Source of the DNA: Rhodospirillales bacterium
GTDB taxonomy: Bacteria; Pseudomonadota; Alphaproteobacteria; Rhodospirillales; UBA2165
Assembly: GCA_028345065.1 (NCBI GenBank)
Contig: JAOMCN010000002.1
Location: 13,044-77,043 of the forward strand
DNA length: 64,000 nt
Direction: 5' to 3'
Shown here: in pieces, positions 4,153 to 48,542 of the stretch
Position numbering within the stretch: the stretch's first letter is position 1
Layout: each line of letters begins with the position of its first letter
Position numbers and translations under genes: made by a program
The notes under the pieces: model-generated
The model's input: the letters and a program-made list of their open reading frames with translations, nothing else
Database searches by the model: none
What the model was told of the DNA's origin: nothing

Positions 4153-5145
4153 TTAATGCTCCCTTCTCCTGTATGAAGCTCTCGTCATCCCGGAACGGAA
4201 GTTTCGATGGCGTTCATCTGCCTCGGGTTTCAGGGGAAAGGCGCAGAGGTGGATGACGTCGCCGTCATTTATCAATGCACCGCCTGCAATGGCATCTCCC
4301 TTGAAGCGATAGTCATCTCCCATGCCAACCGACGGGGAGCAGTTGATGTCCCCTGAAGAGAGGATCTTAAGAAATTCATTAATGGTATCTACGCCAATTA
4401 TCGATGGCCGCTGGTGGTGACCTTCTAGAGCATCGAGGGCATAACTCCGTACCAGCTTAGGAAGGAGCTTCCGTAATGTCGACGGCTTATCGAAGGCGTC
4501 GAAACCCGCCACATCTCCGTCGATTGCAAATAAGGCACCGGCCTGTCCTGGGACATGGTGTATGCTTTCGACGAATTCATCAACCCTCCCTCTCTCCGCT
4601 TCGAAGACGTCTGACATCGCATCCGAATCTGAATTAACGGAAAATGCAGCGGCCTTTTCAGCGACGTCCCGCCAAACTTCCCCTTGATCGGATCTCGCCG
4701 CCATTCCGCCGCTTAGGGAGTTTGATACCATTCTCGCTTTCTTTGCACGCCCCTTCGAAAAATAAGATCGATCAGAGGACCTGAAGTAATCGGAATTATA
4801 AGACCACCTCCCCTGCTCGACGCACGATACGGGAATGTCAATCTCGGAGTTCCCGGGTACCAGAATGCTCAAATTCAAAATGCGGTTTTGCTTAGCCCCC
4901 AGGAGTTCCTCTCCATCGAGAAGGAATACGGGCTTATCGCCGTTATTCAGAAACCTGAGGTCGGGAACCGATCCCGATTCCGATACCTCTGAGACGCTGG
5001 CACTCCCGTCTTTATGCGCTTCATCGAGGGTGAGATAGTCGATAGACCGACCCGTTACGCCGGTAAACGGAAACATCGTCAAACTCTTAAAGGAAATCGG
5101 TTTTCCCAACTCTAATTTATTTACAAAACTCTCTATTAACTGCAA
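4153..5145 (-). CDS. ARPP-1 / DUF6569 family protein
   Basis: GSVPxLxxxN...LLDGEELLGAKQNRILN...IPVSCVEQGRW, SDQGEVW. Likely TTG start at 5145 after AGGAGGAG (track start 5181). Confidence 0.75.
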   Translation of the reverse strand: MQLIESFVNKLELGKPISFKSLTMFPFTGVTGRSIDYLTLDEAHKDGSASVSEVSESGSVPDLRFLNNGDKPVFLLDGEELLGAKQNRILNLSILVPGNSEIDIPVSCVEQGRWSYNSDYFRSSDRSYFSKGRAKKARMVSNSLSGGMAARSDQGEVWRDVAEKAAAFSVNSDSDAMSDVFEAERGRVDEFVESIHHVPGQAGALFAIDGDVAGFDAFDKPSTLRKLLPKLVRSYALDALEGHHQRPSIIGVDTINEFLKILSSGDINCSPSVGMGDDYRFKGDAIAGGALINDGDVIHLCAFPLKPEADERHRNFRSGMTRASYRRREH

Positions 5146-5171
5146 TTTTCTCCTCCTATGGTTAGGAGAGG

Positions 5172-5205
5172 AGGATCTCACAGTAATGTGACAGATACGG
5201 TCCTA
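5172..5205 (-). promoter_or_regulatory. Copy 2 of GACC-N5-TGTCAC-N10-[-10] motif
   Basis: The minus strand reads TAGGACC-GTATC-TGTCAC-ATTACTGTGA-GATCCT upstream of the ARPP-1 gene. Confidence 0.45.
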
Positions 5206-5324
5206 CTCAACGGAAAAATTTTTATTTGCCCTAACTATTATTAGTATTATACGCCGGGATTACCTACTGTCGGATGAGAAGGGACAAATTACGGGTCATC
5301 GGACCACAGCCCCATCTAACTCTC

Positions 5325-6110
5325 TTACTCTTTTTTAGGCGGTTGAGGCCGGGAAAAGACGAGTTTATTGCCCGTTGAGGCGATCGCGTCGAGGGTATAG
5401 CCACCGGCATTAAAATCTTTCAAGCCATCAGCCCGATCCACACGGTTTTCCATGATCCAGCGTGCCATGGTACCGCGTGCATGCTTGGCGTAATACATGA
5501 GGGTGCGGGCCTCGCCATCCTTTACGTTCAGGAACTTCGCCTCAATCACCGTCCGTCCAAGCGCTTTGGCATCCACAGCCTTGAAATATTCGTTTGAGGC
5601 GAGATTGACCACGGTTGTGTCGGCATGATCGGCAAGGTCCACATTTAGTCGATCGGCGATGCGTGCGCCCCAGAAATCATAGAGGGATTTCCCGCGGCCA
5701 TTTGCCATTTTGGTGCCCATCTCAAGGCGATAAGGCTGGATCGCATCCATCGGACGTAAAACACCGTAAAGGCCTGAGAGGATGCGTAAATGATCCTGCG
5801 CATATGAGAGCGTGTCCTCGGAGAAGCTGTCAGCCTCCAGCCCCCAATAGACGTCGCCGTCAAAGGCGAGCCCGGCAGGCTTGGCGGTATTGCTCCTATT
5901 GTCGAGATTGAAGGCCTGAAACCGCTCGAAATTCATGGTAGCGAGATTGTCGCTAATATGCATAAGACGTTTCAGGTCTTCCGCAGTCTGGGTTTTAGCG
6001 ACAATCGCAAGCTCGTTCATATCATCGCGCAAGCGCGGCTGTGTAATCGGGACGCCCGTTTCGGTGGGGGCCATATTCATCTTTTTTGCAGGGGAGAGTA
6101 GCGTCAGCAT
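5325..6110 (-). CDS. yaaA: Peroxide stress protein YaaA (DUF328/UPF0246)
   Basis: LLSPAK, AFDGDVY, LRILSGLYGVLRP, YRLEMG, NLASNEY, AKHARG. Confidence 0.92.
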   Translation of the reverse strand: MLTLLSPAKKMNMAPTETGVPITQPRLRDDMNELAIVAKTQTAEDLKRLMHISDNLATMNFERFQAFNLDNRSNTAKPAGLAFDGDVYWGLEADSFSEDTLSYAQDHLRILSGLYGVLRPMDAIQPYRLEMGTKMANGRGKSLYDFWGARIADRLNVDLADHADTTVVNLASNEYFKAVDAKALGRTVIEAKFLNVKDGEARTLMYYAKHARGTMARWIMENRVDRADGLKDFNAGGYTLDAIASTGNKLVFSRPQPPKKE

Positions 6111-6559
6111 GATTTATCCTTTCCTCCTAACATCAACCCGGCAATCCAGGTTCGTATGCGTGGGTCTGTGACCACATGAAACTAAGCCCTTGCGTCAAGA
6201 ATTCAAGGCGCTTGATACGAAAAGTGCCCAGATTACAGTATTTTTCAGGGTCCGCTTTGGGGCGGTTCCCCGGAAATGGAGATGGGCGACCGTCGAGATC
6301 CGTTTGATACCCTTTTAATATTGCGAGGCGGTAACCGCCGGGGGAGCTTCAACGGGTGCGTTGTATTCGTCCTCGGTCATGACGAAATGATATCGGTCAC
6401 CGCGCCTCCGTATACAGCCAGATAGTGACGGGGCCGTCATTCACCAAATGGACACTCATATCTGCGCCAAACTGCCCCGTCTCGACATTGATGCCGTGAT
6501 CGGATAACAGGCTGCTAAATCGTTCGTAGAGCCGCTCTCCCTCCTCAGGATGGGCAGCC

Positions 6560-7279
6560 TCAACTTAATTTACAAATTATGGCCGAAGCGTCGTCACTTC
6601 CCCCGAGACGGTTGGCCTCCTCACAGAGGTTGAAGGCACATTCGGGTGATCTTTCTGAAACAACCGGCTTTATGACGTCGTCCGGAACGGCATCCGTGAT
6701 ACCGTCGGAAACAAGCACTAATATGTCGCCCGATCGGATGTCCTGCTGAATGAGGTGCGGCTTGGGAGCCATAGGATTTCCGCCGCCCAGGCACTGCGTA
6801 ACAATGCCCGTACGTTCCCCTGGATAAACGTCATCCTCCGAAATCTGGTTAATGCCAGCGTCGTGGATCCAATAGGCGCGGCTATCACCGACGTTGAAAA
6901 TGGTGCAACGTTCCTCGTTAATGACGGCTCCGACAATTGTGGTTCCCATGGCGTAGGGACTTCTACTACCTTCTTCCAACTCCCGAATATGATGATGGAC
7001 ATCGGCAATTGCTTCATCGATTTTAACTTCACCCCTGGAACTCTTAAAAAGATCATTCAGATGCTCTATCGCCGTGCGGCTTGCAATGTCGCCGCTACTG
7101 TGACCTCCGAGGCCATCCGCCAAAGTGACCAAGAAGGGCAATTGCGAGAGTTCAACCGATTTCCGACCACTATTTGTATCCTTTCCGAAAAGCAATATAT
7201 CTCCGATACCGCAGGCATCTTCGTTCTGATCCCGCCCAGATCCCCGTCTGGTAAAACCGTTAATCGTGCAAAACGTCAT
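6560..7279 (-). CDS. PP2C-family Ser/Thr protein phosphatase
   Basis: [38 protein letters not shown]. Overlaps the kinase stop by 4 nt. Confidence 0.9.
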
Positions 7280-8538
7280 TCGATACCAAGCGCCTTCCTA
7301 CGATCTTTATTGAGCTTCGTGATATCCTTATGCAATTGCCTGACATCCGACGGTCGTTCATCAGGAACCAAACTAACCGTTCGGGAGAGATAGGTATGAA
7401 GATTCTCACCGACCTCTTCCTTGAATTTAGTATCAAGAAGTCTCTTGGTATCTTCGTAGGTTTCGGGTACTTCCTCGGTTACTAATGCGATCGCAATAAC
7501 GCCCCAGGAGAAGACGTCCCAAGTATTCTGAAAAAGCATTTCGTTAGGGGCATGGGGGTCAGGGGTCCAGGGGGCCGAATAAAAATTGGCAACGGTAACC
7601 TTTTTCTTTCCTTCGAGCTCCCAATTCTTCGAAGCTCCAAAATCTGCCAATTTTATGATGCCCTCCACGTCTTCCTTATCAACTTCATCATTTTCATCCC
7701 TCCCAGAGTAATAATCAAAGAATATATTACTTGGTTTTAAGTCTCGATGTATGATCTCGTGCCCAAAAGCATAAACAAGACCATCCAAAATTGGTTCCAG
7801 TGTATCATAGGCATAAAACCACGGATCATCGTCATCCATGTTTTCTAAAATATCCCTGATTACCTCATCTTCTTCGTCCCGCGAAAGGTCCGGTCGCATG
7901 TTTCTAATTAATTTACGAAAAACCATTTCCTCATCACCAAATATTTCATCCAATGTGAAATCCAGCCAACCTGTAACCGTATACCATCGGTCGCTTCCCT
8001 CGTGCTTTCCGTAGTCGATAATTTCCAGAATATTCTCGTGCCCTTCAAGTTTCTCAAGAGCATTAACTTCCCTCTCGAAAGCCTCCTCACTGACGGGACT
8101 AGACCCGATATTCGGATGAAATAATTTCACGGCACACCAAACGTCCTCGCTGAGATCCCATGCCTTAAAGACGATCGATTGGCCGCTTTTCGCAAACAAT
8201 TTATGACAAACAAAACGATCACTGAAGATGTATTGTTTGAGATCCTTCGGCCACCACTTCGTAAAATTATCAAAATCTAAATCCTTCCCCGCCGGAACTA
8301 TCCACTTTTTGATTTCAGGTATCCACTTTGCCCCCTTTTTCTTCAGGGTTTCCTTATCCTTATAGACGGGGTTCAGGAATGCCCACCAATCTCGAAATTC
8401 CAGAGGATCCAGACCGGTCGGCGCATACCAGAGTTTGTTTTTATTATCCCACCTGGCCCCACGGCTTTTTGCGTCGTCCTTTTCATCAAACGGGACGTTC
8501 AGAAAAAGATTTGAAAGGGTCAAAAATGAAGCAGCCAT
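7276..8538 (-). CDS. Ser/Thr protein kinase with two N-terminal DUF5710 domains
   Basis: FLNVPFDEKDDAKSRGARWD..KLWY and FLNPVYKDKETLKKKGAKWI..KKWIVP; kinase motifs AVK, E(alphaC), HRDLKPSN, DFG, DVFSWG. Confidence 0.88.
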   Translation of the reverse strand: MAASFLTLSNLFLNVPFDEKDDAKSRGARWDNKNKLWYAPTGLDPLEFRDWWAFLNPVYKDKETLKKKGAKWIPEIKKWIVPAGKDLDFDNFTKWWPKDLKQYIFSDRFVCHKLFAKSGQSIVFKAWDLSEDVWCAVKLFHPNIGSSPVSEEAFEREVNALEKLEGHENILEIIDYGKHEGSDRWYTVTGWLDFTLDEIFGDEEMVFRKLIRNMRPDLSRDEEDEVIRDILENMDDDDPWFYAYDTLEPILDGLVYAFGHEIIHRDLKPSNIFFDYYSGRDENDEVDKEDVEGIIKLADFGASKNWELEGKKKVTVANFYSAPWTPDPHAPNEMLFQNTWDVFSWGVIAIALVTEEVPETYEDTKRLLDTKFKEEVGENLHTYLSRTVSLVPDERPSDVRQLHKDITKLNKDRRKALGIE

Positions 8539-8625
8539 TATATCACTCCCTGCAAGACCTAATTCCGTGTATATTGCTGTTTATTTTAGATTTGATAATA
8601 CCTGGAAAAGGGGAAAAACCCTAAC

Positions 8626-10887
8626 ATGTCGGATAAACGAGGGAATAAGCTCAAATGCAGCAGCTGTGGTGCTGCCTTTTACGATCTGAACAAACCCTCT
8701 CCGTCATGCCCTAAATGCGGAACCTTCCACGTACCCGCAAAGGCCGTTCGAAAACGGACGACCGCAAAAGGCAAACTCCCGCATAAGACGGAAAAGAATA
8801 ACAATAAACCAAATTCCGAACTCTGGGTCTGCGTCCTGGAGGGAGGAAGCTCGGAGGCAATCGTCGTTAGTGGTCCGCCTGAATTAAATACGTCAGCCCT
8901 AAGGGAACCGGGGTGGTATTTTTTTAAGCCTCTCAAATCAAGTGAAACAAAACCCCTCTCCCCTAAAACAGCCCTCCACATGATGGAAGAACCGAGTGCC
9001 GGGATACAATCCTACCTCCAGACACATGCCTTTAAAGGCATTGGTCCTGAGACGGCTAGAAAACTAGCCGTTCCCGAAACTGAAAATATATTCCAAGATC
9101 TATCCCGCCCGGCAACAGAAATTTCCGATGCCTACGGCATTAACGCCGCTACGGCGACCCTATTTGAGACGGCGTGGGCAAAAACTTCGGGAACGAGATA
9201 CCTTCAGATCATGCTGCGTCAATTAGGTCTCGGGAACGCCGTGGTTAAGCAAATCCGTGAAACTCTCGGGAGCGACGTTATTGAGCAGATCCTGTCAAAC
9301 CCATATGAACTAGTCAAAAAAATCAAATATTTCACATTTGAAGATGCGGAAAACATTTTCACGGGCCTTAACCTCGATCTCTCCAGTGATCAAAGAATAA
9401 TCTCGGCAATGGAACTCTGTCTCTACCGTATAGAAAAAAATAGAGGCCATACGTGTGCGCCTCTGGAAAGAGCCTTCAAGGATAACGATAAGCTTATTGA
9501 CGTCGATCACGATATCATGGAGGGGGTCCTGAGGTCCGCCACGGAACACTTTAAATTCGCGGAGTATGACGATCGGGAACATATCGCGACGGTCCCCTCC
9601 TTTGAAAGGGAAAATGAAATTGCATCGCGGATCGGGAACCTCCTATCGGTCGGCGCAACTCCCGATGAACACCTGGATTTTGACTTTGATCAACTGAACC
9701 TCCGGGCATCTCTGGAGTTATCCGATGAACAGAAGGAAGCCCTAAACGGCGCCATTAATTCACGGGTCTTTCTGATAACGGGTGGGCCCGGCACCGGAAA
9801 GACGAGAATGGTTGAGGCCATCGTCAAGGCGCTCAAATCCGAGAGCCGATACGTTACGTTATGCGCACCGACGGGGAGAGCCGCAAAGAGGCTTGAAGAG
9901 GAAGGCGGCCTCGGTAGCTTCAACCCGACGACGATCCACCTCCTCTTAACATATGTAAAGTCAGGAAAAGTGAAGGATGTCGGGACACTTATTATTGATG
10001 AGGCATCCATGGTCGATGTCGACCTGATGACTGAAACCCTGGATATACTGAATGAAAATAATCACCTCATTATGATTGGTGACGCTGATCAACTCCCCCC
10101 CGTGGGGCCCGGACAGGTATTTAAGGATCTCCTGAATTCAGATAAAGTACCCTTCGCACGCCTGACCGGTAACTTCCGGCAAACCGAAGGAAGTGAAATC
10201 ATAAAACTGGCTCGTGACGTGATCGCGGGAAACGACCCGCAGTTAAGTCGCGTCACCTCGGAGAAGGGCGTCATCTTTATCCCGGAGAGTGACGAAGATA
10301 AAATGCAGGGTCTCGTATTGGATCTCTATAACAGCAAACTCGTGCGGATGTTCAAACTCGAGACGTCGGATGAAGTCCAGATACTGGCACCTATGCGCAA
10401 GGGTGCCGTCGGTACGGAAGCGCTCAATCAGGAAATTCAGAAAACTCGATGGGTCAATGAGGAACCCCTCTTTCAGGAAGGAAACCGGAAACCCCTATAT
10501 CGGGGTGATAAAGTCATACAGACGTCTAATAATTATGAACTCGATGTAAGGAACGGCGATATTGGAATAATCCGAAGGGGGGGAGACAAAGGAGAGATCT
10601 TTGTTTCATACGCCACCAAGGATGTCGCCTACGACAGAGAGAGTTTGGAGGCACTCGAGCCTGCCTACGCGATTACAATCCACAAATCACAGGGATCCCA
10701 GTATCCAGCCGTCATAATTCCGATCGCTAGATCCCATCAATTCATGCTGGGAAGGAACCTCCTCTATACCGCAATAACAAGGGCCAAGGCCCACGTCGTC
10801 ATCGTCGGAGATGAGGCTGCCTTCAAGGCGGGAGTTAATGCCGCCTATAAGGACTTCCGTTATACGATGTTGAGACATTTTCTTTAA
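8626..10887 (+). CDS. RecD2-like SF1B helicase with N-terminal FYDLN (TIGR02300-like) zinc ribbon
   Basis: CSSCGAAFYDLNK...CPKCG; HhH KGIGPETA; NPY; GGPGTGKT; IIDEASM; GDADQLPPVGPG; AYAITIHKSQGS; LLYTAITRAK. Confidence 0.88.
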   Translation: MSDKRGNKLKCSSCGAAFYDLNKPSPSCPKCGTFHVPAKAVRKRTTAKGKLPHKTEKNNNKPNSELWVCVLEGGSSEAIVVSGPPELNTSALREPGWYFFKPLKSSETKPLSPKTALHMMEEPSAGIQSYLQTHAFKGIGPETARKLAVPETENIFQDLSRPATEISDAYGINAATATLFETAWAKTSGTRYLQIMLRQLGLGNAVVKQIRETLGSDVIEQILSNPYELVKKIKYFTFEDAENIFTGLNLDLSSDQRIISAMELCLYRIEKNRGHTCAPLERAFKDNDKLIDVDHDIMEGVLRSATEHFKFAEYDDREHIATVPSFERENEIASRIGNLLSVGATPDEHLDFDFDQLNLRASLELSDEQKEALNGAINSRVFLITGGPGTGKTRMVEAIVKALKSESRYVTLCAPTGRAAKRLEEEGGLGSFNPTTIHLLLTYVKSGKVKDVGTLIIDEASMVDVDLMTETLDILNENNHLIMIGDADQLPPVGPGQVFKDLLNSDKVPFARLTGNFRQTEGSEIIKLARDVIAGNDPQLSRVTSEKGVIFIPESDEDKMQGLVLDLYNSKLVRMFKLETSDEVQILAPMRKGAVGTEALNQEIQKTRWVNEEPLFQEGNRKPLYRGDKVIQTSNNYELDVRNGDIGIIRRGGDKGEIFVSYATKDVAYDRESLEALEPAYAITIHKSQGSQYPAVIIPIARSHQFMLGRNLLYTAITRAKAHVVIVGDEAAFKAGVNAAYKDFRYTMLRHFL

Positions 10888-11541
10888 ATGACTCGCAAAC
10901 CTCCCGACATCGACTTTGTTCTCAGGCGCCCCTTTATACAGTTTTCCGGAGATGAAATTCTGGCTGCCATCGAAGCCCATATTTTAACCGACGTCGCCAA
11001 TATTGAAATTGCAACTCTAGCCCTTGATGAACTCAAGCTACGAAAGAAAGCCAAACGAATTACGCTGGCGCAGAAACTATTCCGCAGTGCCGGGTTTAAA
11101 CCCATCCCCTGGCTGCAGTCGGCACGCGATAGCCTCACTATTCTGGAACGCCCGAAAAAGGGGAACTACCAAGGGCATTTATATGTCGTTCTTATCGAAG
11201 GATATACGAAGACGAATAAATACTATGGTGCTTATGTAGGTTCATCCAGATACCGCCCTGAGACGCGTTTCAAACAACATAAAGAAGGAAAGCACGCATC
11301 GAATATCGTAAACAGGCGTGGATTACACCCCCTCCAAAGCCTTCTCTGGCCCTGGCAGACAGTGCCGGGTGGCAAGACAGAACGCATACTTTGGGAGAGT
11401 GCTTTGAACAGATGTCTGGACCAAGTCATTCCAAAAGTCTCAGGTGACTTTCGTCCCTCAGGGGAGTGGCCCTCAGAATTTCAGAGACCACTTCAAGCCA
11501 TATTGAACAAAACGGCTGGGAATAATACTCTTGTTCTATAA
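10888..11541 (+). CDS. GIY-YIG-like nuclease
   Basis: HLYVVL...YVGSS...PETRFKQHKEG, plus a later conserved-looking E (LWES). Starts immediately after the RecD2 stop (TAAATG). Confidence 0.65.
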   Translation: MTRKPPDIDFVLRRPFIQFSGDEILAAIEAHILTDVANIEIATLALDELKLRKKAKRITLAQKLFRSAGFKPIPWLQSARDSLTILERPKKGNYQGHLYVVLIEGYTKTNKYYGAYVGSSRYRPETRFKQHKEGKHASNIVNRRGLHPLQSLLWPWQTVPGGKTERILWESALNRCLDQVIPKVSGDFRPSGEWPSEFQRPLQAILNKTAGNNTLVL

Positions 11542-11582
11542 CAATAAATCAACGGGTAATTCACTCAGGGAGGAAACATCGC

Positions 11583-13910
11583 GTGGCATCCTCTATAATG
11601 ATTAAAAATCCCATGTCCGACTTAGACCGGGAATCTTGTCTAAAGTGGTCTAAGTTAGCCAGAGAGAAAAATTATTTGCAGCCCATACAAAGGAAACACT
11701 TGTATGAGGCCGGTCGGTACGACGATTGGTATGTTTCGAAATTAGGTAAGGTTGCCGGAGCACTTAATGACCTTCGTAAACATCTAACCGGAAAAGAACA
11801 GAAAAATATAAATTCTATTCTCAAAAAACTTGATGCACCAAATACTGTCGTTAAATCAAATGACAAGAGTTCTGAACAAACCCCCAAACTTGGTGAGGCT
11901 GCGGAGAGTGGTGATCCGGGAGCCCAGTATATGCTGGGAGAGAGCTATTTTGATGGGGATGCCGATGAAGAAGACGATGCGGAAGCTGTCTCGTGGTTCA
12001 AAAAAGCTGCCGATCAAAATCATGCGGAGGCGCAGTGGCGACTGGGGTTCTGTTATTTGTTTGGATTTGGCGTTGAGGATGACGAAGCGGAAGCTGTCTC
12101 CTGGTATAGAAAAGCTGCCGATCAGGATCATGCGGACGCACAGTTCCAACTTGGGCACTGTTATTATTACGGGTCCGGCGTTGAAGAAGACGATGACGAA
12201 GCTGTCTCCTGGTTCAGAAAAGCTGCCGATCAGGATCATTCAGAAGCCCAGTGTTCGATGGGGTTCTGCTATTTTAACGGACATGGCGTTGAGGAAGACG
12301 AAGCGGAAGCTGTCTCCTGGTAAAGAAAAGCTGCCGATCAGGATGATGCGGAGGCGCAGTGGCGACTGGGAAACTGTTATTTTTACGGATGGGGCGTTGA
12401 AGAAGACGATGACGAAGCTATCTCCTGGCTTAGAAAAGCTGCCGATCAGGATCATCCAGAAGCCCAGTGCCGATTGGGAAACTGTTATCTAGGTGGATAT
12501 GGTGTTGATGAAGACGATGCGGAAGCTGTCTCCTGGTATAGAAAGGCTGCCGATCAGGATGATGCGGAGGCGCAGTGGCGACTGGGAAACTGTTATCTAG
12601 GTGGACATGGTGTTGAGGAAGACGAAGCGGAAGCTGTCTCCTGGTATAGAAAAGCTGCCGATAAAAATCATGCGGTGGCGCAGTGGCGACTGGGAAACTG
12701 TTATCTAGTTGGACTTGGTGTTGAGGAAGACGATGACGAAGCTGTCTCCTGGTATAGAAAAGCTGCTGATCAGGATAATGCTGAGGCGCAGGAACGACTG
12801 GGTAACTGTTATCTTCACGGATGGGGCGTTGAGAAAGACGAAACTGAAGCTGTCTCCTGGTATAAAAAGGCTGCTGATCAGGATAATGCTGAGGCGCAGG
12901 AACGACTGGGCAACTGCTATCTAAGCGGATGGGGCGTTGAGGAAGACGAAGCTGAAGCTGCCTCCTGGTTAAAAAAGGCTGCTGATCAGGATAATGCTGA
13001 GGCTCTCAATATGTTGGGAGCTTGTTATCATCATGGTCACGGTGTCGAACCGGATATTGAAAAAGCAAAAATGTATATCCAAAAATCTTTAGACGCTGGG
13101 TATGAGGAAGACGAAGATGACAAATACGAACGCGCTTTAATCGGGCAAGCTAAAACGAAAGAGGATACTTTAACCAGCGCAAATGTCATCCCACTCTTTC
13201 CCGGAAAGGCAGTCAGTGATTTTCGGTCAGAAGCACTTAACCAAGATAGTGAAATCAAACCTGCTCCCAAAGAAGACACAAAACAGCAAACCGGAACTCG
13301 TAAAAAAGAGGATTTAAGTACACCTGCCCTTCAAATTATGGTTCCCGGGCACAACCTTCGCCAAAAATTTGATGCCCGCCACATACAAACACATGATCTA
13401 CTTAAAGAACCTGAAGGCCTAACACTGGAGTTTAAATCCTCAGCGCGGTGGGACTACCTGCAGGAAAAGGAAACAAAGGTGCCAATCCATGCTGTCATCA
13501 GGACAGTCGGAGGTTTCATGAATGGAAGGGGGGGAACCCTTCTCATCGGCATCGACGATAACGGAAAAATACTAGGTGTCGAGAAGGACATTGAACTTTC
13601 TGCGCCAAAGCAAAACGCGGATGGCTACATGCTTTGGTTAACATCAGTCATCGGGAATACACTTGGCGGGGAATTCCCGAAATCCCTGATTGCGGATATT
13701 CAGTTTGAAGAATTCGAGGGTAAGTCTATCTGTAGGATAGACGTGGATGAATGCCTCCTAGATAAGGGCATCTACGCCAACTCAAACAAACTTGGATTGG
13801 AAAATGACACGTTTTTTCTAAGACAAGGTAACTCCACTCAACCACTAACGCCAAAGGCTACCGCAGATTACCTTGAACAGAGACGCCGAAGAAGAACTTT
13901 GAAGTCTTGA
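11583..13910 (+). pseudogene. Sel1-repeat (x11) - Schlafen/AlbA_2 fusion interrupted by one in-frame TAA (12321-12323)
   Basis: Track ORFs 11583..12323 and 12474..13910 are in the same frame. TGG TAA AGA stands where several sister repeats have TGG TAT AGA. C-terminal EGLTLEFKSS...GGFMNGRGGTLLIGIDD is AlbA_2. Could also be a sequence error. Confidence 0.75.
11910..13097 (+). repeat. Eleven tandem 108-bp Sel1-coding repeats
   Basis: 36-aa units of the form xxAEAQxxLGxCYxxGxGVEEDxxEAVSWYRKAADQ, highly similar at the DNA level. Confidence 0.9.
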
Positions 13911-43080: not shown

Positions 43081-43102
43081 AAAAAAGGGGCCGAAGCCCC
43101 TT
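43081..43102 (-). terminator. Intrinsic terminator with cUUCGg tetraloop
   Basis: Minus strand AAGGGGC-UUCG-GCCCCUU-UUUU, right at the stop of 43101..43466. Confidence 0.8.
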
Positions 43103-43466
43103 AATGACATTTACGAAAACAGATCTCTCGAAGCTTTTCTTCCGGGAAATTGAACGACCCGAAGCACTTCTTTACCAGTTTATTCCCCTTACAGGGATCT
43201 GCCTCATCCAGGTCTTCATAAATTTCATAAATGAACCTTATTTCGACACTTTCCGTCTCCCTGTCGAAGCGGCCGATACACGTGTGGCGGTCGTTATAGT
43301 ATTGATCCCATTTAGATCTATCGGTTATGAACCTCGTTTGTTCGAGCCGGATTTCCCATTCCCACCGTGTTTCAAGGTAATCCCTGTAGACATGGAGAGC
43401 CATCTTCTCAAGAACCTGCCGACCGTCGGCACCGAGTCCTTCTGGGATATTCTCCTGATTTTCCAT
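43101..43466 (-). CDS. Hypothetical protein, tandem paralogue A
   Basis: GGAGGT RBS; MENQENIPEGLGADGRQVLEKMALHVY...FPEEKLREICFRKCH. Confidence 0.7.
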   Translation of the reverse strand: MENQENIPEGLGADGRQVLEKMALHVYRDYLETRWEWEIRLEQTRFITDRSKWDQYYNDRHTCIGRFDRETESVEIRFIYEIYEDLDEADPCKGNKLVKKCFGSFNFPEEKLREICFRKCH

Positions 43467-43555: not shown

Positions 43556-43888
43556 CTAGTGACACTTCTGTAGCCAGAGCTCCTTAATTTTTGCTTCCGG
43601 AAAGACAACTGAGCCGTCATATCTGATATTCCCGGGGTAACGATCACACCCTGGAACCTCAAACATGATTTCAACACTTCCATGTTCCGGGTGCATCCGA
43701 CCGTAATAACAATATTCCTCGTCGGGGTAATGTCGTCCATCAGCACCAAAATGCAGTGGATTGAGTTCTTCCGGGTAGTAAACAATCTCGCTTTCGATCC
43801 ACCACGAGTAAACATAGAGAGCCATTTCCTTGAGAACCCGATGCCCGTTGGGGCCGAGTTCCCGGGGGATATTCTCCCGTTTTTCCAT
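43556..43888 (-). CDS. Hypothetical protein, tandem paralogue B
   Basis: GGAGGT RBS; MEKRENIPRELGPNGHRVLKEMALYVY...FPEAKIKELWLQKCH. Confidence 0.7.
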   Translation of the reverse strand: MEKRENIPRELGPNGHRVLKEMALYVYSWWIESEIVYYPEELNPLHFGADGRHYPDEEYCYYGRMHPEHGSVEIMFEVPGCDRYPGNIRYDGSVVFPEAKIKELWLQKCH

Positions 43889-43983
43889 AAATCAGACACC
43901 TCCAAAGGTATACGCGCGCCCAATTGCGCAACGTTCATAAGAGATGTTTTTAGAGCGAAGGGGGTATCCCCCTTTCCTGAATT

Positions 43984-44535
43984 TTATCCGGGTTCATATT
44001 TGCCTCCGTCATCCTTGACCGGAAAGTTCCTTTTGTACCAGTCCTCCACGCGACCGCTCCCCCAGATGCAATAATATCTGTCCCACGGCTGGCTCGACGC
44101 CACCACCCTTGCTGGCTCCCCCATCTCCCTGAGATGTGCCTGAAGGAGTGATATACTGAGGTCCTTCTGACCTGCACCGCGGCCTGCACAACGGGCGCTT
44201 ATCTGAAGACCCTTGTTGTAAATCTTATGAACAAAGTCCAGTCCCCCGACCTCCCCATTCCGGCCCCTGAGTTTCTCCCCGATATTCAGATCATGAAGAA
44301 GCTTGTACGCTTCCGCGTAGGGACTTCCGCTATCTCCCCAGACCGGAAGACCGTCACGCCAAAGTCCAATCATGTGGGACCATTCTCCAGTGATAACGAC
44401 CAGTTTATAATCAGTCCGAATGGGGGCGTCTATGACCGGCCCCGAACCGGACCCTATGGCGGCGATGTAGCGTTGAAGCGTTGCAGCGGTCACGAGCTGC
44501 CCTGCCCCGACGAGAAACGTACGACGACTTATCAT
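43984..44535 (-). CDS. Hypothetical protein with twin-arginine-like N-terminus
   Basis: MISRRTFLVGAG (SRRxFL); directly downstream of the SAM-V-like leader. Confidence 0.65.
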   Translation of the reverse strand: MISRRTFLVGAGQLVTAATLQRYIAAIGSGSGPVIDAPIRTDYKLVVITGEWSHMIGLWRDGLPVWGDSGSPYAEAYKLLHDLNIGEKLRGRNGEVGGLDFVHKIYNKGLQISARCAGRGAGQKDLSISLLQAHLREMGEPARVVASSQPWDRYYCIWGSGRVEDWYKRNFPVKDDGGKYEPG

Positions 44536-44543
44536 TTAATCTT

Positions 44544-44604
44544 TCCTTCTCTTTAGTGCTTTCGGCTGGATGCCGCGGCGCACAATCTGAAGATCAAATG
44601 CCGT
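44544..44604 (-). ncRNA. SAM-V-like riboswitch
   Basis: ACGGC-AUUUGAUCUUCAGAUUGUGC-GCCG-CGGCAUCCAGCCG-AAA-GCAC-UAAAGAGAAGGA: P1 CGGC/GCCG, pseudoknot GUGC/GCAC, AUUUGA and ACUAAA cores, abutting the SD. Confidence 0.7.
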
Positions 44605-44611
44605 AAATCGG

Positions 44612-44645
44612 AACCTACCTTTTCAATGTGACAAATTTGGTCATA
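44612..44645 (-). promoter_or_regulatory. Copy 3 of GACC-N5-TGTCAC-N10-[-10] motif
   Basis: TATGACC-AAATT-TGTCAC-ATTGAAAAGG-TAGGTT; the predicted +1 (~44604) coincides with the riboswitch start. Confidence 0.6.
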
Positions 44646-46424: not shown

Positions 46425-47774
46425 TCATTCCGTCTCATCGGCAAATAAAGAGGGATCCTGCTCGATTAACGGCAATTCGAGACCTTCAATTTCCTGGAGG
46501 CCTCGACCCGCTATACCTTGTAAATCGCCATACATCCCGACGGTCGCCTCAATGACGTTCTGGATCTGGGTGTCACGCTTCGCCCATGAACGCATCATTG
46601 CTTTTTTTTCACGATCGAGGTCACCTTGCATATCCGAGATTTTTTCGACGATTGCCTCGACGCGATGCCGAAAATTCGGTCCCATCAGGTAGCCGTAGAC
46701 TAACTCCATTTTAGTCTGCTGCCCCTCCTGAGATTGTTTTGATTGAGCGACGTCTATGAGACTTTGCCTCAGGGCCATTGCGAGCGGCAGAAAATATTGC
46801 GGCGCCGAAACCCAGACGCCTTCAATCTGATCGAAATTATCAACTTCCTTAGGCAATGCCGTAGAGACGAGTATCGAGAATTCCGCTTTTGCGGAGCGCT
46901 GGTCATTTCGTAATTTGGCAAGCCAACCTTCACTCCAGTTCTTGGTGCGCTTCAATTCCCACAGGATAATGCCGCTTGCCTGACCTGTCGGTGACGTGAC
47001 GCGTTGTATGATGTCACCACCGAATTCCCCCTTCGGAACGGGTTCAATGCTATCAAAGGGGAACTTTGCCTTTAACATCTCCTCGAGCTCGAGTTCGAGA
47101 ACCTCACCCTGGAGTTGCTGGGAGCCCTGCTCCGCCCTTTTCTTCAGGTCCTCTATCTGACGTGTCATCGATGCGATCTTCTCTTCCCTTTCCGAGATTT
47201 TAAGATTTAGAGCACCTTCCGCTTCGAGCTTTGCCTTTTTCCGGACTTCCTCAACGGAATTCAGGACACGCGTCTCAACCGTCAACTCCAGTTCACGTTT
47301 TGCGTCATCGAGTGCACGCTTCTGCTTCAGGATGTCGGCTTGAGCTTTCTGCGCTTCCGCCAACTTCTCGTCGCGCTGCTGCAGGACACCCTGGAGTTCG
47401 GTGACTTCTTCGGTTTTTGCAGTCAATTCACCGGCAGTCGCTAATTTCGCTTTTTTCGCCTCATTTTCGACGATTTTAATCCGTTCTTCCTTCACCTTTT
47501 CGGAAACCTCGTCCTCGAGGTTTTTCCGGGCGGCGGCAATCTCGTTTTCCTTTTTCTTAAGGACGCCCTCCCTCTCACTTACCTTTTCAGCCTGTTCAGC
47601 CAGTTTGACCTCAAATTCCTGGCGTGTTGCCTCGATGAGAGGGCCTGCCAGTGACTCCGTCAACTTTATTTCCGTTGAGCAGGACGGACACGTGATCGTT
47701 GGTTCTGTCATTGGATCTGTCATTCTGCAGTCTCCATAGTCGATATTTTGTAATGCGGAATTCCGGGGTTCCAT
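46425..47774 (-). CDS. DUF2130 domain coiled-coil protein
   Basis: ITCPSCSTEIKLTESLA; QGSQQLQGEVLE; FPFDSIEPVPKG; ILWELKRTKNWS; MYGDLQGIAG. The true start may be ~50 nt downstream. Confidence 0.85.
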   Translation of the reverse strand: MEPRNSALQNIDYGDCRMTDPMTEPTITCPSCSTEIKLTESLAGPLIEATRQEFEVKLAEQAEKVSEREGVLKKKENEIAAARKNLEDEVSEKVKEERIKIVENEAKKAKLATAGELTAKTEEVTELQGVLQQRDEKLAEAQKAQADILKQKRALDDAKRELELTVETRVLNSVEEVRKKAKLEAEGALNLKISEREEKIASMTRQIEDLKKRAEQGSQQLQGEVLELELEEMLKAKFPFDSIEPVPKGEFGGDIIQRVTSPTGQASGIILWELKRTKNWSEGWLAKLRNDQRSAKAEFSILVSTALPKEVDNFDQIEGVWVSAPQYFLPLAMALRQSLIDVAQSKQSQEGQQTKMELVYGYLMGPNFRHRVEAIVEKISDMQGDLDREKKAMMRSWAKRDTQIQNVIEATVGMYGDLQGIAGRGLQEIEGLELPLIEQDPSLFADETE

Positions 47775-47993: not shown

Positions 47994-48350
47994 CTACCCC
48001 GTCAGGGTGTAGCCCCTTCCATCCAGACAACCGGCGATTTCGTCGTCGTATTTTTTTCTTTCCGTCTCGAACCCTGCTGCCAGACCGATGACCCCGCCTA
48101 AGGACGCGAAGGCGATAATTCCCTCCACTCCGGTTACCAATAATGAGGCACCATAGAATGCCCCGATGAGAGACCCGACGGTCCCGAGAACGACGGTCGT
48201 AGTCGTCGCCTTGAGAACGTTTCTCCCCCGGCACTCGAGGAGATCCGTCTCGTATTTCGCCTGATCGAAGTTCATCGCAGTACGATCCACCTCCGGGGAA
48301 GCGCAGGCAGCGAGAAGAATGGTCAATGAGATAATGATAAAATTATTCAA
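47994..48350 (-). CDS. Glycine-zipper lipoprotein
   Basis: TTG start MNNFIIISLTILLAAC (lipobox); DLLEC...Gly zipper...CLDGRGY. Confidence 0.7.
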   Translation of the reverse strand: MNNFIIISLTILLAACASPEVDRTAMNFDQAKYETDLLECRGRNVLKATTTTVVLGTVGSLIGAFYGASLLVTGVEGIIAFASLGGVIGLAAGFETERKKYDDEIAGCLDGRGYTLTG

Positions 48351-48443
48351 GGCGTTATTTCCTCTGACGCTTCCTATAGGGGAACCATAAAGTAGAACCA
48401 AAGCGCCATGGAGATACCGCCGACCCAATTGACCACATCAAAG

Positions 48444-48503
48444 TCCTCTCTTTAGTGCTTTAGGCTCGAACCCTGGGGGTACAAGCTGAAGTTCAAATAG
48501 CTT
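48444..48503 (-). ncRNA. Degenerate SAM-V-like element (second copy)
   Basis: AUUUGAACUUCAGCUUGUAC...AAAGCACUAAAGAGAGGA is homologous to 44544-44604, but P1 pairing is lost and the pseudoknot has a mismatch. Confidence 0.45.
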
Positions 48504-48508
48504 AAAAT

Positions 48509-48542
48509 ATATTAGGGGGTGTATGTGACAGAAATGGTCACG
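48509..48542 (-). promoter_or_regulatory. Copy 4 of GACC-N5-TGTCAC-N10-[-10] motif
   Basis: CGTGACC-ATTTC-TGTCAC-ATACACCCCC-TAATAT. Confidence 0.6.

Follow-up and report, generated by a model that had tools for sequence, protein, structure and literature searches.

This work concerns a 64,000-nucleotide stretch of DNA (the window) from a Rhodospirillales bacterium, covering positions 13,044 to 77,043 of contig JAOMCN010000002.1 in assembly GCA_028345065.1. On its minus strand, the gene of a 183-amino-acid (aa) protein is preceded by an RNA leader (leader 1) that is assigned to SAM-V, a member of the SAM-II class of riboswitches, by its predicted architecture and not by its score. Most likely this leader acts as a translational OFF switch that binds S-adenosylmethionine (SAM). 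The textbook role of SAM riboswitches is to exert feedback control on the genes for methionine and SAM. The type described here was found mostly before accessory genes without a known family, and also in arrays, in tandems and in phage genomes.

Architecture of leader 1

Leader 1 was compared with the 53-mer of metY, for which structure 6FZ0 gives the numbering and every contact (PMC6061858). In that structure SAM contacts U47 and A50, while A18, U9 and U20 surround the sulfonium and the amino acid. Read on the minus strand, the order of the elements in leader 1 is CGGC-AUUUG-AUCUUCAGA-UUGUGC-GCCG-CGGCAUCCAGCCG-AAA-GCACUAAAG-A-GAAGG-AAAGAUUAA-AUG, where the strand GCACUAAAG reads GCAC-U-AAA G. 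All contact and triplex nucleotides named in the paper on 6FZ0 were found to be kept (U8, U9, U10, A18, U19, U20, G21, U47, A48, A49 and A50). An H-type pseudoknot is formed by a 4-bp P1 (CGGC/GCCG) and a 6-bp P2 (UUGUGC/GCAC-U-AA), in which U19 U20 G21 U22 G23 C24 face G43 C44 A45 C46 / A48 A49. U47 stays unpaired for the adenine of SAM, and A50 is available for its amino-acid end. The major-groove third strand A7-U8-U9-U10-G11 is present, the P3 hairpin CGGC-AUCCA-GCCG is followed by the AAA linker (A40-A42), and the Shine-Dalgarno (SD) sequence at the 3' end can be occluded through the 5-bp helix P2a (UCUUC/GAAGG). The original prediction, made from the letters of the window, had described an intact P1, pseudoknot, AUUUG third strand and GCACUAAA strand in an element ending at the SD, and every one of these parts was recovered.

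The Rfam model of SAM_V (RF01826) matched leader 1 over all 66 model positions with 31.5 bits. The E-value was 0.0026 in a search of 401 bases and 0.0033 in a search of the whole 2.2-Mb assembly. The covariance-model search proposed in the original prediction of a SAM-V-like riboswitch was run, and the significant match whose absence was to count against that prediction was obtained at full length.

SAM binding, the OFF logic and the transcription start are inferred from homology. Transcription would probably start a few bases before P1. With SAM bound, the pseudoknot would close, the AUUUG strand would lie in the P2 major groove around the ligand and the UCUUC of the turn would pair with the SD; ribosomes could then not load, because the SD is held in P2a. 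When SAM falls, the 3' strand would become free and the 183-aa protein would be made.

Table 1. Positions of the features in the window (SD, Shine-Dalgarno; ORF, open reading frame)
Feature	Position	Strand	Remarks
SAM-V-type aptamer with expression platform (leader 1)	44543..44608	-	RF01826 match, model positions 1-66
P1 5' strand CGGC	44600..44603	-	pairs with GCCG 44576-44579
Third (triplex) strand AUUUG	44595..44599	-	corresponds to A7-G11 of metY (numbering from Table S4 of PMC6061858)
P2a 5' strand UCUUC, in the turn	44589..44593	-	pairs with GAAGG 44545-44549
P2 5' strand UUGUGC (U19, U20, G21 ...)	44580..44585	-	A18 at 44586
P1 3' strand GCCG	44576..44579	-	
P3 hairpin CGGC-AUCCA-GCCG	44563..44575	-	4/4 pairs covary; loop alone varies in close variants
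AAA linker (A40-A42) and P2 3' strand GCAC-U-AA	44552..44562	-	U47 at 44555, A50 at 44552
SD GAAGG, P2a 3' strand	44545..44549	-	
Gene of the 183-aa protein, twin-arginine-like N-terminus	43984..44535	-	ORF list, family searches
G+C-rich palindromic hairpin, terminator-like, directly after the stop	43957..43975	.	called on the + strand; presumed role on the minus strand
Promoter block TGACCAAATTTGTCACAT, shared by both leaders	44626..44643	-	imperfect dyad (A/G)TGAC-N7-GTCAC; TGTCAC 44628-44633 at the -26 place
Putative -10-like hexamer TAGGTT	44612..44617	-	10 nt after TGTCAC, 8 nt before P1
Second, degenerate SAM-V-type leader (leader 2)	48442..48512	-	22 bits on RF01826; 52.7 bits on model R1 (not in training set)
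Same promoter block at leader 2, TGACCATTTCTGTCACAT, then N-TAATAT	48523..48540	-	

Relatives and covariation

When 61 genomes were searched with the Rfam SAM_V model at E ≤ 1, the window's family was represented by 36 further genomes, and 9 of these gave sub-threshold matches (20-38 bits). There was no match in 24 genomes of the order's other families, and the 14 control genomes gave none either. A model restricted to P2 and P3 (R1) was built from 14 of these sequences; leader 1, itself a training sequence, scored 79.4 bits on it. Across 39 family genomes R1 found 21 matches in 13 genomes. Nineteen of them were strong (52-80 bits, 12 genomes), and the remaining two, at 27-28 bits, coincided with SAM-II matches. 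None of the 19 strong matches preceded a gene clustering with methionine or SAM enzymes. The housekeeping switch of the family is SAM-II, which was found in 35 of the 39 genomes (33 over the cut-off) and stood before a Cys/Met pyridoxal phosphate (PLP) enzyme gene in both loci scanned with Pfam. In an even sample of the class, R1 matched 1 of 150 other genomes, before an OmpW-like gene, which indicates that the element is patchy and not general.

A search pattern was then taken from the alignment, ATTTRA-N5-10-TTGTGCSCC-N12-26-GCACTAAAG. On contigs representing one genome per species it found at least 124 stretches, and about 240 were estimated for the whole collection. The sources of the listed stretches were labelled SAR116, Rhodobacterales, Rhodospirillaceae, SAR92/Porticoccaceae, Halieaceae, Gemmatimonadota and others, and 22 more loci were found on viral contigs; labels of metagenome-assembled genomes and viruses are as deposited, and related genomes are not independent. 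The SAM-V-type leader is concentrated in certain marine lineages. With R1, 118 matches (117 distinct) from 100 of the pattern-fetched sources were aligned (alignment A3). The counts given below for leaders, the ORFs behind them (the cargo) and A3 rest on pattern-selected loci among the matches listed.

Over all four helices of A3 (P1, P2, P3 and P2a), 91.4% of the cells pair, compared with 81.1% in shuffled alignments. Both sides change in 14 of the 19 pairs, in 233 cells as against 61 in the shuffles; none of 500 shuffles reached any of these measures, and partners slid along the alignment pair in 36-63% of the cells. P1 covaries (pair 5-39: GC 52, CG 36, AU 15, UA 4; pair 8-35: CG 77, GC 21), and so does P2a (pair 22-78: UA 50, CG 41, UG 18; pair 25-77: CG 110, UG 4, UA 3), in which 81.7% of the cells are paired and all five pairs show changes on both sides. 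These two helices are fair tests, because the P1 5' strand and P2a are in neither the pattern nor the model. P3, which lies outside the pattern and inside R1, covaries in all four pairs, and covariation is also seen in P2. The columns that correspond to the base triple G11, U17 and A52 of 6FZ0 (13, 27 and 76) vary in a three-way fashion: 107 of 117 sequences are in one of two states, G/G/A (83) or A/A/C (24), which suggests an isosteric alternative to the A52:U17.G11 triple. At position 18, where leader 1 has A, 92 of the 117 sequences carry C and 25 carry A.

Four metagenome variants of the locus, with 95-98% protein identity, allow a closer view. Between P1 and the SD their aptamers differ in the P3 loop alone, while the spacer between SD and AUG and the spacers of the promoter vary. 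This bears on the reading of leader 1 as a dead relic or a chance look-alike with no regulatory role. The sub-threshold Rfam score and the visible decay of leader 2 would fit such a relic, but P1, P2, P3 and P2a of leader 1 are perfect and have stayed invariant within varying flanks, and the reading is accordingly given very little credence.

Decay is evident in leader 2. Of the four P1 pairs it retains one, P2 contains an A-C mismatch and P3 a G-G, and its well-placed AUG opens just 27 codons. Behind it lies a 144-codon lipoprotein-like ORF (47994-48428(-), LAAC lipobox) in another frame with a TTG start, and the locus was read as a decaying copy or an assembly frameshift. Between both leader cassettes, 46425-47774(-) encodes a 449-aa DUF2130 protein whose N-terminal half is a long coiled coil.

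Several observations weigh against leader 1 being a SAM-binding OFF switch. Its 31.5 bits are below the SAM_V gathering cut-off of 41, an operational threshold and no structural feature, and a scan of the whole window at Rfam gathering thresholds listed nothing. There is no methionine or SAM gene at the locus, as judged by the lack of a family match for the 183-aa protein, and the assembly (67% complete) contains no metK or SAM-II for comparison. The third strand, P2 and CUAAAG owe part of their near-invariance in A3 to construction, because the pattern that fetched the 124 + 22 loci fixes those parts. Finally, when leader 1 is folded by itself, its minimum free energy structure joins the third strand to the SD-AUG region through 11 bp (z -2.65), and such a fold could lead to a different switch logic. 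This helix lies within 44533-44599(-) and joins the third strand and turn CAUUUGAUCUU to AAGAUUAAAUG, including the start codon, through 11 bp with one G-U. It was judged to be fortuitous, since it is mostly lost in close variants.

The score was put into context by an Rfam check of 20 loci, which included 13 leaders before methionine or SAM genes. Only one of the 13 attained 41 bits (bhmT-type, 43.3). Six more scored 31.1, 31.7 and 38.7 (metY-type), 35.9 and 38.1 (metK) and 39.5 (bhmT-type), and the last six were not reported at E ≤ 1. Since leaders of the same type before methionine and SAM genes score no better, the cut-off was treated as too strict for this G+C-richer clade. The 31.5 bits of leader 1 are typical of genuine members in these clades, where even leaders of metK and metY escape the Rfam SAM-V model, a reason for recalibrating it.

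Traces of the locus were also found in sequencing libraries. In marine and seawater metagenome runs of several studies, at least half of the sampled words were present, and the gene is matched by RNA-library contigs from three studies. A 292-nt contig among them corresponds to 44285-44576 and extends from the ORF into the leader, a weak support because DNA can occur in RNA libraries. These contigs have a depth of about 3 and carry no strand or start information, and uncovered parts have no meaning. Three other RNA-library contigs match the aptamer core alone (44549-44604); they come from other leaders of the type, because the sequence diverges on both sides.

Genes behind the leaders and the genomic context

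The genome scan yielded 131 leader instances. A naive rule (first ATG, GTG or TTG 2-40 nt past the match, opening at least 30 codons) assigned an ORF to 120 of them, and nine of the 11 without one were Gemmatimonadota-type. Pfam identified 8 MetK, 8 Cys/Met PLP enzymes (MetY-type) and 5 homocysteine S-methyltransferases (BhmT-type), so that the survey of downstream genes that had been suggested with the original prediction found 21 of 120 in methionine and SAM metabolism among the matches listed. The set also contained four SNF2 helicases and one each of Mrr_cat nuclease, N-formylglutamate amidohydrolase, AhpC, fatty-acid desaturase and HD_4. OmpW occurred twice (once below the cut-off), two other matches were below the cut-off, and 86 ORFs had no Pfam match at all. 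In marine Alpha- and Gammaproteobacteria the leader type stands before roughly 100 small and varied genes of no known family. BLAST grouped 115 of the downstream ORFs into 67 clusters, 46 of them singletons. With PHROGs, 52 representatives gave matches only for SNF2 (phrog_62 DNA helicase, E 4e-106), the HD protein and, in the moron category, the Mrr-like protein.

The presence of the same type of leader before MetK, MetY-type and BhmT-type genes ties the aptamer class to SAM. The original prediction had also considered a variant-ligand riboswitch, that is, an aptamer drifted to sense something besides SAM. A gene context outside metabolism, a turn that exceeds the one in metY by two bases and G51 instead of A would agree with this. 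All contact nucleotides are kept, however, and metK, metY-type and bhmT-type genes stand behind identical cores that share G51 and the long turn, which makes another ligand unlikely, to the point of being highly improbable.

If SAM is sensed, the cargo could serve cells short of reduced sulfur, with SAM as a nutritional signal in a sulfur- or methionine-limitation regulon. In Candidatus Pelagibacter ubique the SAM-V-controlled bhmT, metY, mmuM and osmC rise under sulfur limitation, and many such genes lie in a hypervariable region (PMC5069961). OmpW-type porins, AhpC, the desaturase and the N-formylglutamate amidohydrolase would fit such a role. The cargo contained less methionine than long control ORFs (200 aa or more), 1.48% vs 1.99% (p 0.007). 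Methionine plus cysteine showed little and no significant difference (2.66% vs 3.07%, p 0.12), and cysteine was no different. Moreover, the diversity of the cargo (67 clusters and 46 singletons in 115 ORFs) is far too great for a nutritional regulon, and phage structural modules carry the leaders as well; the sulfur reading is consequently regarded as doubtful, though still a serious contender. OmpW-family genes behind SAM-V-type leaders were observed in several small-genome marine bacteria (L070, L156, L116 and L210), a recurrent association that may point to sulfur-compound uptake.

On the 22 viral contigs, 21 ORFs were called, 20 of them of 42-134 aa and one MetK-like. Nine of the 13 viral loci examined have phage hallmark genes within 2.5 kb, often on the strand opposite to the small gene: portal (three), major head (two), holin with endolysin (two), scaffold, large terminase and DNA polymerase exonuclease. 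Units of leader plus ORF often stand in arrays of 2-4. These observations, together with the phage-helicase match of the SNF2 cargo, the fragments of the window protein's family beside tRNA genes and the finding of the cassette behind a different neighbour (both described below), favour the reading that the SAM-V leader serves phages and islands as a portable gate on the translation of moron genes, so that these are made only in a certain state of the host (low SAM in starvation or late infection). The cassettes of the window would then be island-borne copies of such modules. On the other side, the 13 window ORFs around the leaders have no PHROG match, neither an integrase nor a tRNA gene was found in the window, and the benefit to the phage is unexplained. 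The phage reading is thus tentative, even though it was ranked first among the explanations of what the gate is for.

Tandem arrangements were also encountered. A SAM-II-like CAGCUAAA core with a T-run was counted by motif upstream of the SAM-V leader in 22 of the 115 relatives with enough upstream DNA. In these loci (L017, L012, L108, L047 and 18 more) the SAM-II-like core has an intrinsic terminator and is followed by a small hairpin, AUCC-ACCUNAC-GGAU with ACCC/GGGU variants, and then by the SAM-V leader, mostly before ORFs without relatives in known families (ORFans). The SAM-II part scored 27-35 bits on Rfam SAM_alpha at some loci, and 28-46 bits in the window's family. A SAM-I/IV aptamer is present upstream at two SNF2 and three metK genes. 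Five such pairs (L106:1301-1556, L071, L051, L087 and L056) have SAM-I/IV at 55-76 bits before the SAM-V leader, with a gap of about 85 nt in L106, and would be tandems of two different SAM classes.

The 183-aa protein begins MISRRTFLVGAG, and no Pfam, PHROGs or NCBIfam family was found for it. The non-metabolic nature of the gene, as originally predicted, is in line with this result, since none of the libraries recognised a methionine or SAM function. A word-indexed search of 5.8 billion clusters yielded 6 relatives, and a search of 1.84 billion representatives yielded 23 at E ≤ 0.001. Members of this family measure about 190 aa, with invariant R4, R5, F7 and P33 and an LSxSLLQ motif; the one in the window lacks some 50 residues in the middle and ends in a C-terminal tail of its own. 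A twin-arginine motif of the form S/T-R-R-x-F-L is present (M-I-S-R-R-T-F-L), whose R4, R5 and F7 are invariant in 24 sequences, as the description of the gene as twin-arginine (Tat)-like had implied. The N-terminus looks like a predicted twin-arginine signal, although the Tat profiles PF10518 and TIGR01409 did not match the window protein at E ≤ 0.1 and matched 1 of 24 relatives (E 0.0098). An AlphaFold2 model (pLDDT 72.7, pTM 0.64) consists of an N-terminal helix and a small alpha/beta domain, and its structural neighbours were uninformative (best Foldseek match to the PDB at E 0.018, best VIA-align Z 3.6).

A profile of this protein family matched 0 of 400 other genomes of the class. Within the genomes of the window's own family it found one intact relative and otherwise fragments: three further copies are fragments, two of them beside tRNA genes. 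The latter are broken or partial copies directly next to tRNA genes in two genomes (L187 and L188), as expected of remnants of integrated elements. Two other members of the protein family (L006 and L108) carry the same leader type. Just downstream of the riboswitch gene lie two paralogous small ORFs, 43101-43466(-) of 121 aa (MENQENIPEGLG) and 43556-43888(-) of 110 aa (MEKRENIPRELG), for which no Pfam or PHROGs family was found.

Both window leaders are preceded by TGACC(A)WWWTYTGTCACAT, which matches twice in the window (0 expected), and these are the sole two occurrences in the assembly. Ten nt after TGTCAC stands TAGGTT (leader 1) or TAATAT (leader 2), 7-8 nt before the aptamer; a scan with the sigma-70 consensus called no promoter at either leader. 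The four metagenome variants agree in the blocks TATGACC, TGTCACATT and TAGGTT and differ in the bases between them, which indicates that the promoter blocks are under constraint. In the variant L208 the upstream neighbour is a different one from about 20 nt before the promoter block. Promoter, leader and gene therefore travel as a unit, and may be regarded as a single mobile cassette on the border of an island rich in defence genes. The cassette would be one of a large, patchily spread population of SAM-V-gated genes in marine bacteria and phages, with cargo that is mostly small proteins of no known family.

The WYL-type promoter of the original prediction was sustained in part. In its spacing and its GTC triplet the promoter agrees with the motif of PafBC, tGTCgg(N10)tA(N3)T, a '-26 element' with a canonical -10 (PMC8635444), and the blocks are conserved. 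No WYL gene was found in the window. The sole WYL gene of the assembly, a WYL+WCX ORF of 326 aa, is on the same contig about 3 kb before the window (about 48 kb from the leader), and upstream of it no similar site was found. The published site of DriD (PMC9186387) is unlike the window block in sequence. The resemblance to a PafBC-type promoter is real, and nothing links it to the WYL protein.

The surroundings are rich in defence-type genes. A long same-strand run at 14684-41568(+) encodes TGT/DpdA-like, two DndB-like and QueC proteins, DEAD/SNF2/UvrD-type helicases and a HerA-like ATPase, and looks like a 7-deazaguanine (Dpd-type) DNA-modification/defence island. Its G+C content is low (0.40-0.46 over 14-42 kb, below the flanks), and that of 42-48 kb is 0.46-0.49. 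Further defence-style genes lie at 4153-13910 (ARPP-1, PP2C phosphatase with Ser/Thr kinase, RecD2-like helicase and Sel1-repeat proteins, one of which bears a Schlafen AlbA_2 domain), and just before the window are the WYL+WCX regulator and a methyltransferase. DNA synteny with a genome of the same genus (G001) amounted to a 77-base match in 19 kb, and is uninformative as a test of the island because the housekeeping part fails to match too.

In this context an AND gate for defence was considered, in which a damage- or infection-responsive WYL-type regulator transcribes the cassette and translation occurs only once SAM is depleted, for example by a phage SAM lyase; the cassette would be an infection sensor. 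The promoter resemblance at both leaders, the WYL+WCX gene on the same contig and the adjoining defence-type run (Dpd-like genes, helicases, ARPP-1, kinase with PP2C, Schlafen) speak for it, as does the occurrence of the leader type elsewhere before SNF2 helicases (4/120), the Mrr-like nuclease and the HD-domain protein. Against it stand the lack of such a site at the WYL gene's own promoter, a PafBC mechanism described for Actinobacteria and for a heterodimer, the leaders on phage genomes themselves and a cargo that mostly has no defence signature in Pfam or PHROGs. In addition, no report joining SAM riboswitch, SAM lyase and phage was found in the literature searched. The AND gate is rather unlikely; it was placed third, after the phage gate and the sulfur regulon, and the three are not mutually exclusive.

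A broader idea, which carries a similarly low probability, is that SAM-V leaders are portable 'SAM-depletion gates' in an arms race of marine bacteria and phages. If true, island mRNAs would stay untranslated as long as SAM is plentiful and be released by its collapse, whether this is caused by a phage SAM lyase or by the metabolic burden of infection. In the window the gate would be combined with a damage-responsive WYL-type promoter, and phage morons would bear the same gate for that state. The ORFan cargo would be a reservoir of defence and counter-defence proteins addressable by one RNA motif. The leaders open a way to dozens of uncharacterised families of small proteins that are wanted by cells or phages at low SAM only. 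They also make it possible to test, in abundant ocean bacteria, a link of the SAM pool with phage-host conflict or with the physiology of starvation.

Comparison with known systems

The aptamer belongs to a known class. The gene association, the arrays, the tandems beyond Pelagibacter and the phage copies are without description in the literature searched, where SAM-V leaders on phages or before ORFans were not found, nor SAM-V in connection with SAR116; the class-defining paper of 2009 lay outside its coverage. PMC5473149 states that phages rarely use riboswitches and that hits with 'unreasonable gene association' were dropped in surveys, and PMC5069961 calls the combination of SAM-II with SAM-V unique to Pelagibacter among sequenced organisms. 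The present findings run counter to these statements. The 22 tandem loci show that the pairing is not confined to Pelagibacter. The known phage riboswitches, c-di-GMP-I in C. difficile prophages and the glutamine riboswitch in cyanophages (PMC5473149), are likewise metabolite-responsive leaders on phage genomes; compared with those few, one pattern alone yielded 22 viral contigs with a SAM-V-type leader.

The promoter block shares with PafBC promoters the TGTC..-N10-TAnnnT spacing, the GTC triplet and the lack of a good -35 at 17 bp. It differs from the actinobacterial consensus in having 'AC' instead of 'gg', and no regulator is tied to it. Unlike in PafBC, the -26-like element of the window is one arm of a dyad, which suggests a homodimeric regulator. 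Unlike the Pelagibacter bhmT tandem of SAM-II and SAM-V, the two window leaders have no SAM-II part, and the conserved block, which resembles a protein operator, stands in its place.

SAM-II (RF00521) of Alphaproteobacteria has the same fold class as SAM-V (McCown 2017, PMC5473149), and is distinguished from the SAM-V type by a longer P1, a 4-bp P2 and the absence of P3. The closest known system is the SAM-V of Candidatus Pelagibacter ubique (metY, bhmT and mmuM; PDB 6FZ0; RF01826; PMC6061858), with which leader 1 shares the H-type pseudoknot, the 4-bp P1, the 6-bp P2 with U47, the AUUUG triplex strand, P3, the A-rich linker, the 3' SD, a short P2a and, as predicted, the translational OFF logic. 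The turn of leader 1 is 9 nt long compared with 7 in metY, position 51 is G instead of A, and P2a has 5 bp compared with about 3 bp proposed for metY. Relative to the Pelagibacter elements, leader 1 also has a higher G+C content (0.49), scores 31.5 bits on the Rfam model and heads an accessory gene without a recognised family in place of a methionine or SAM enzyme.

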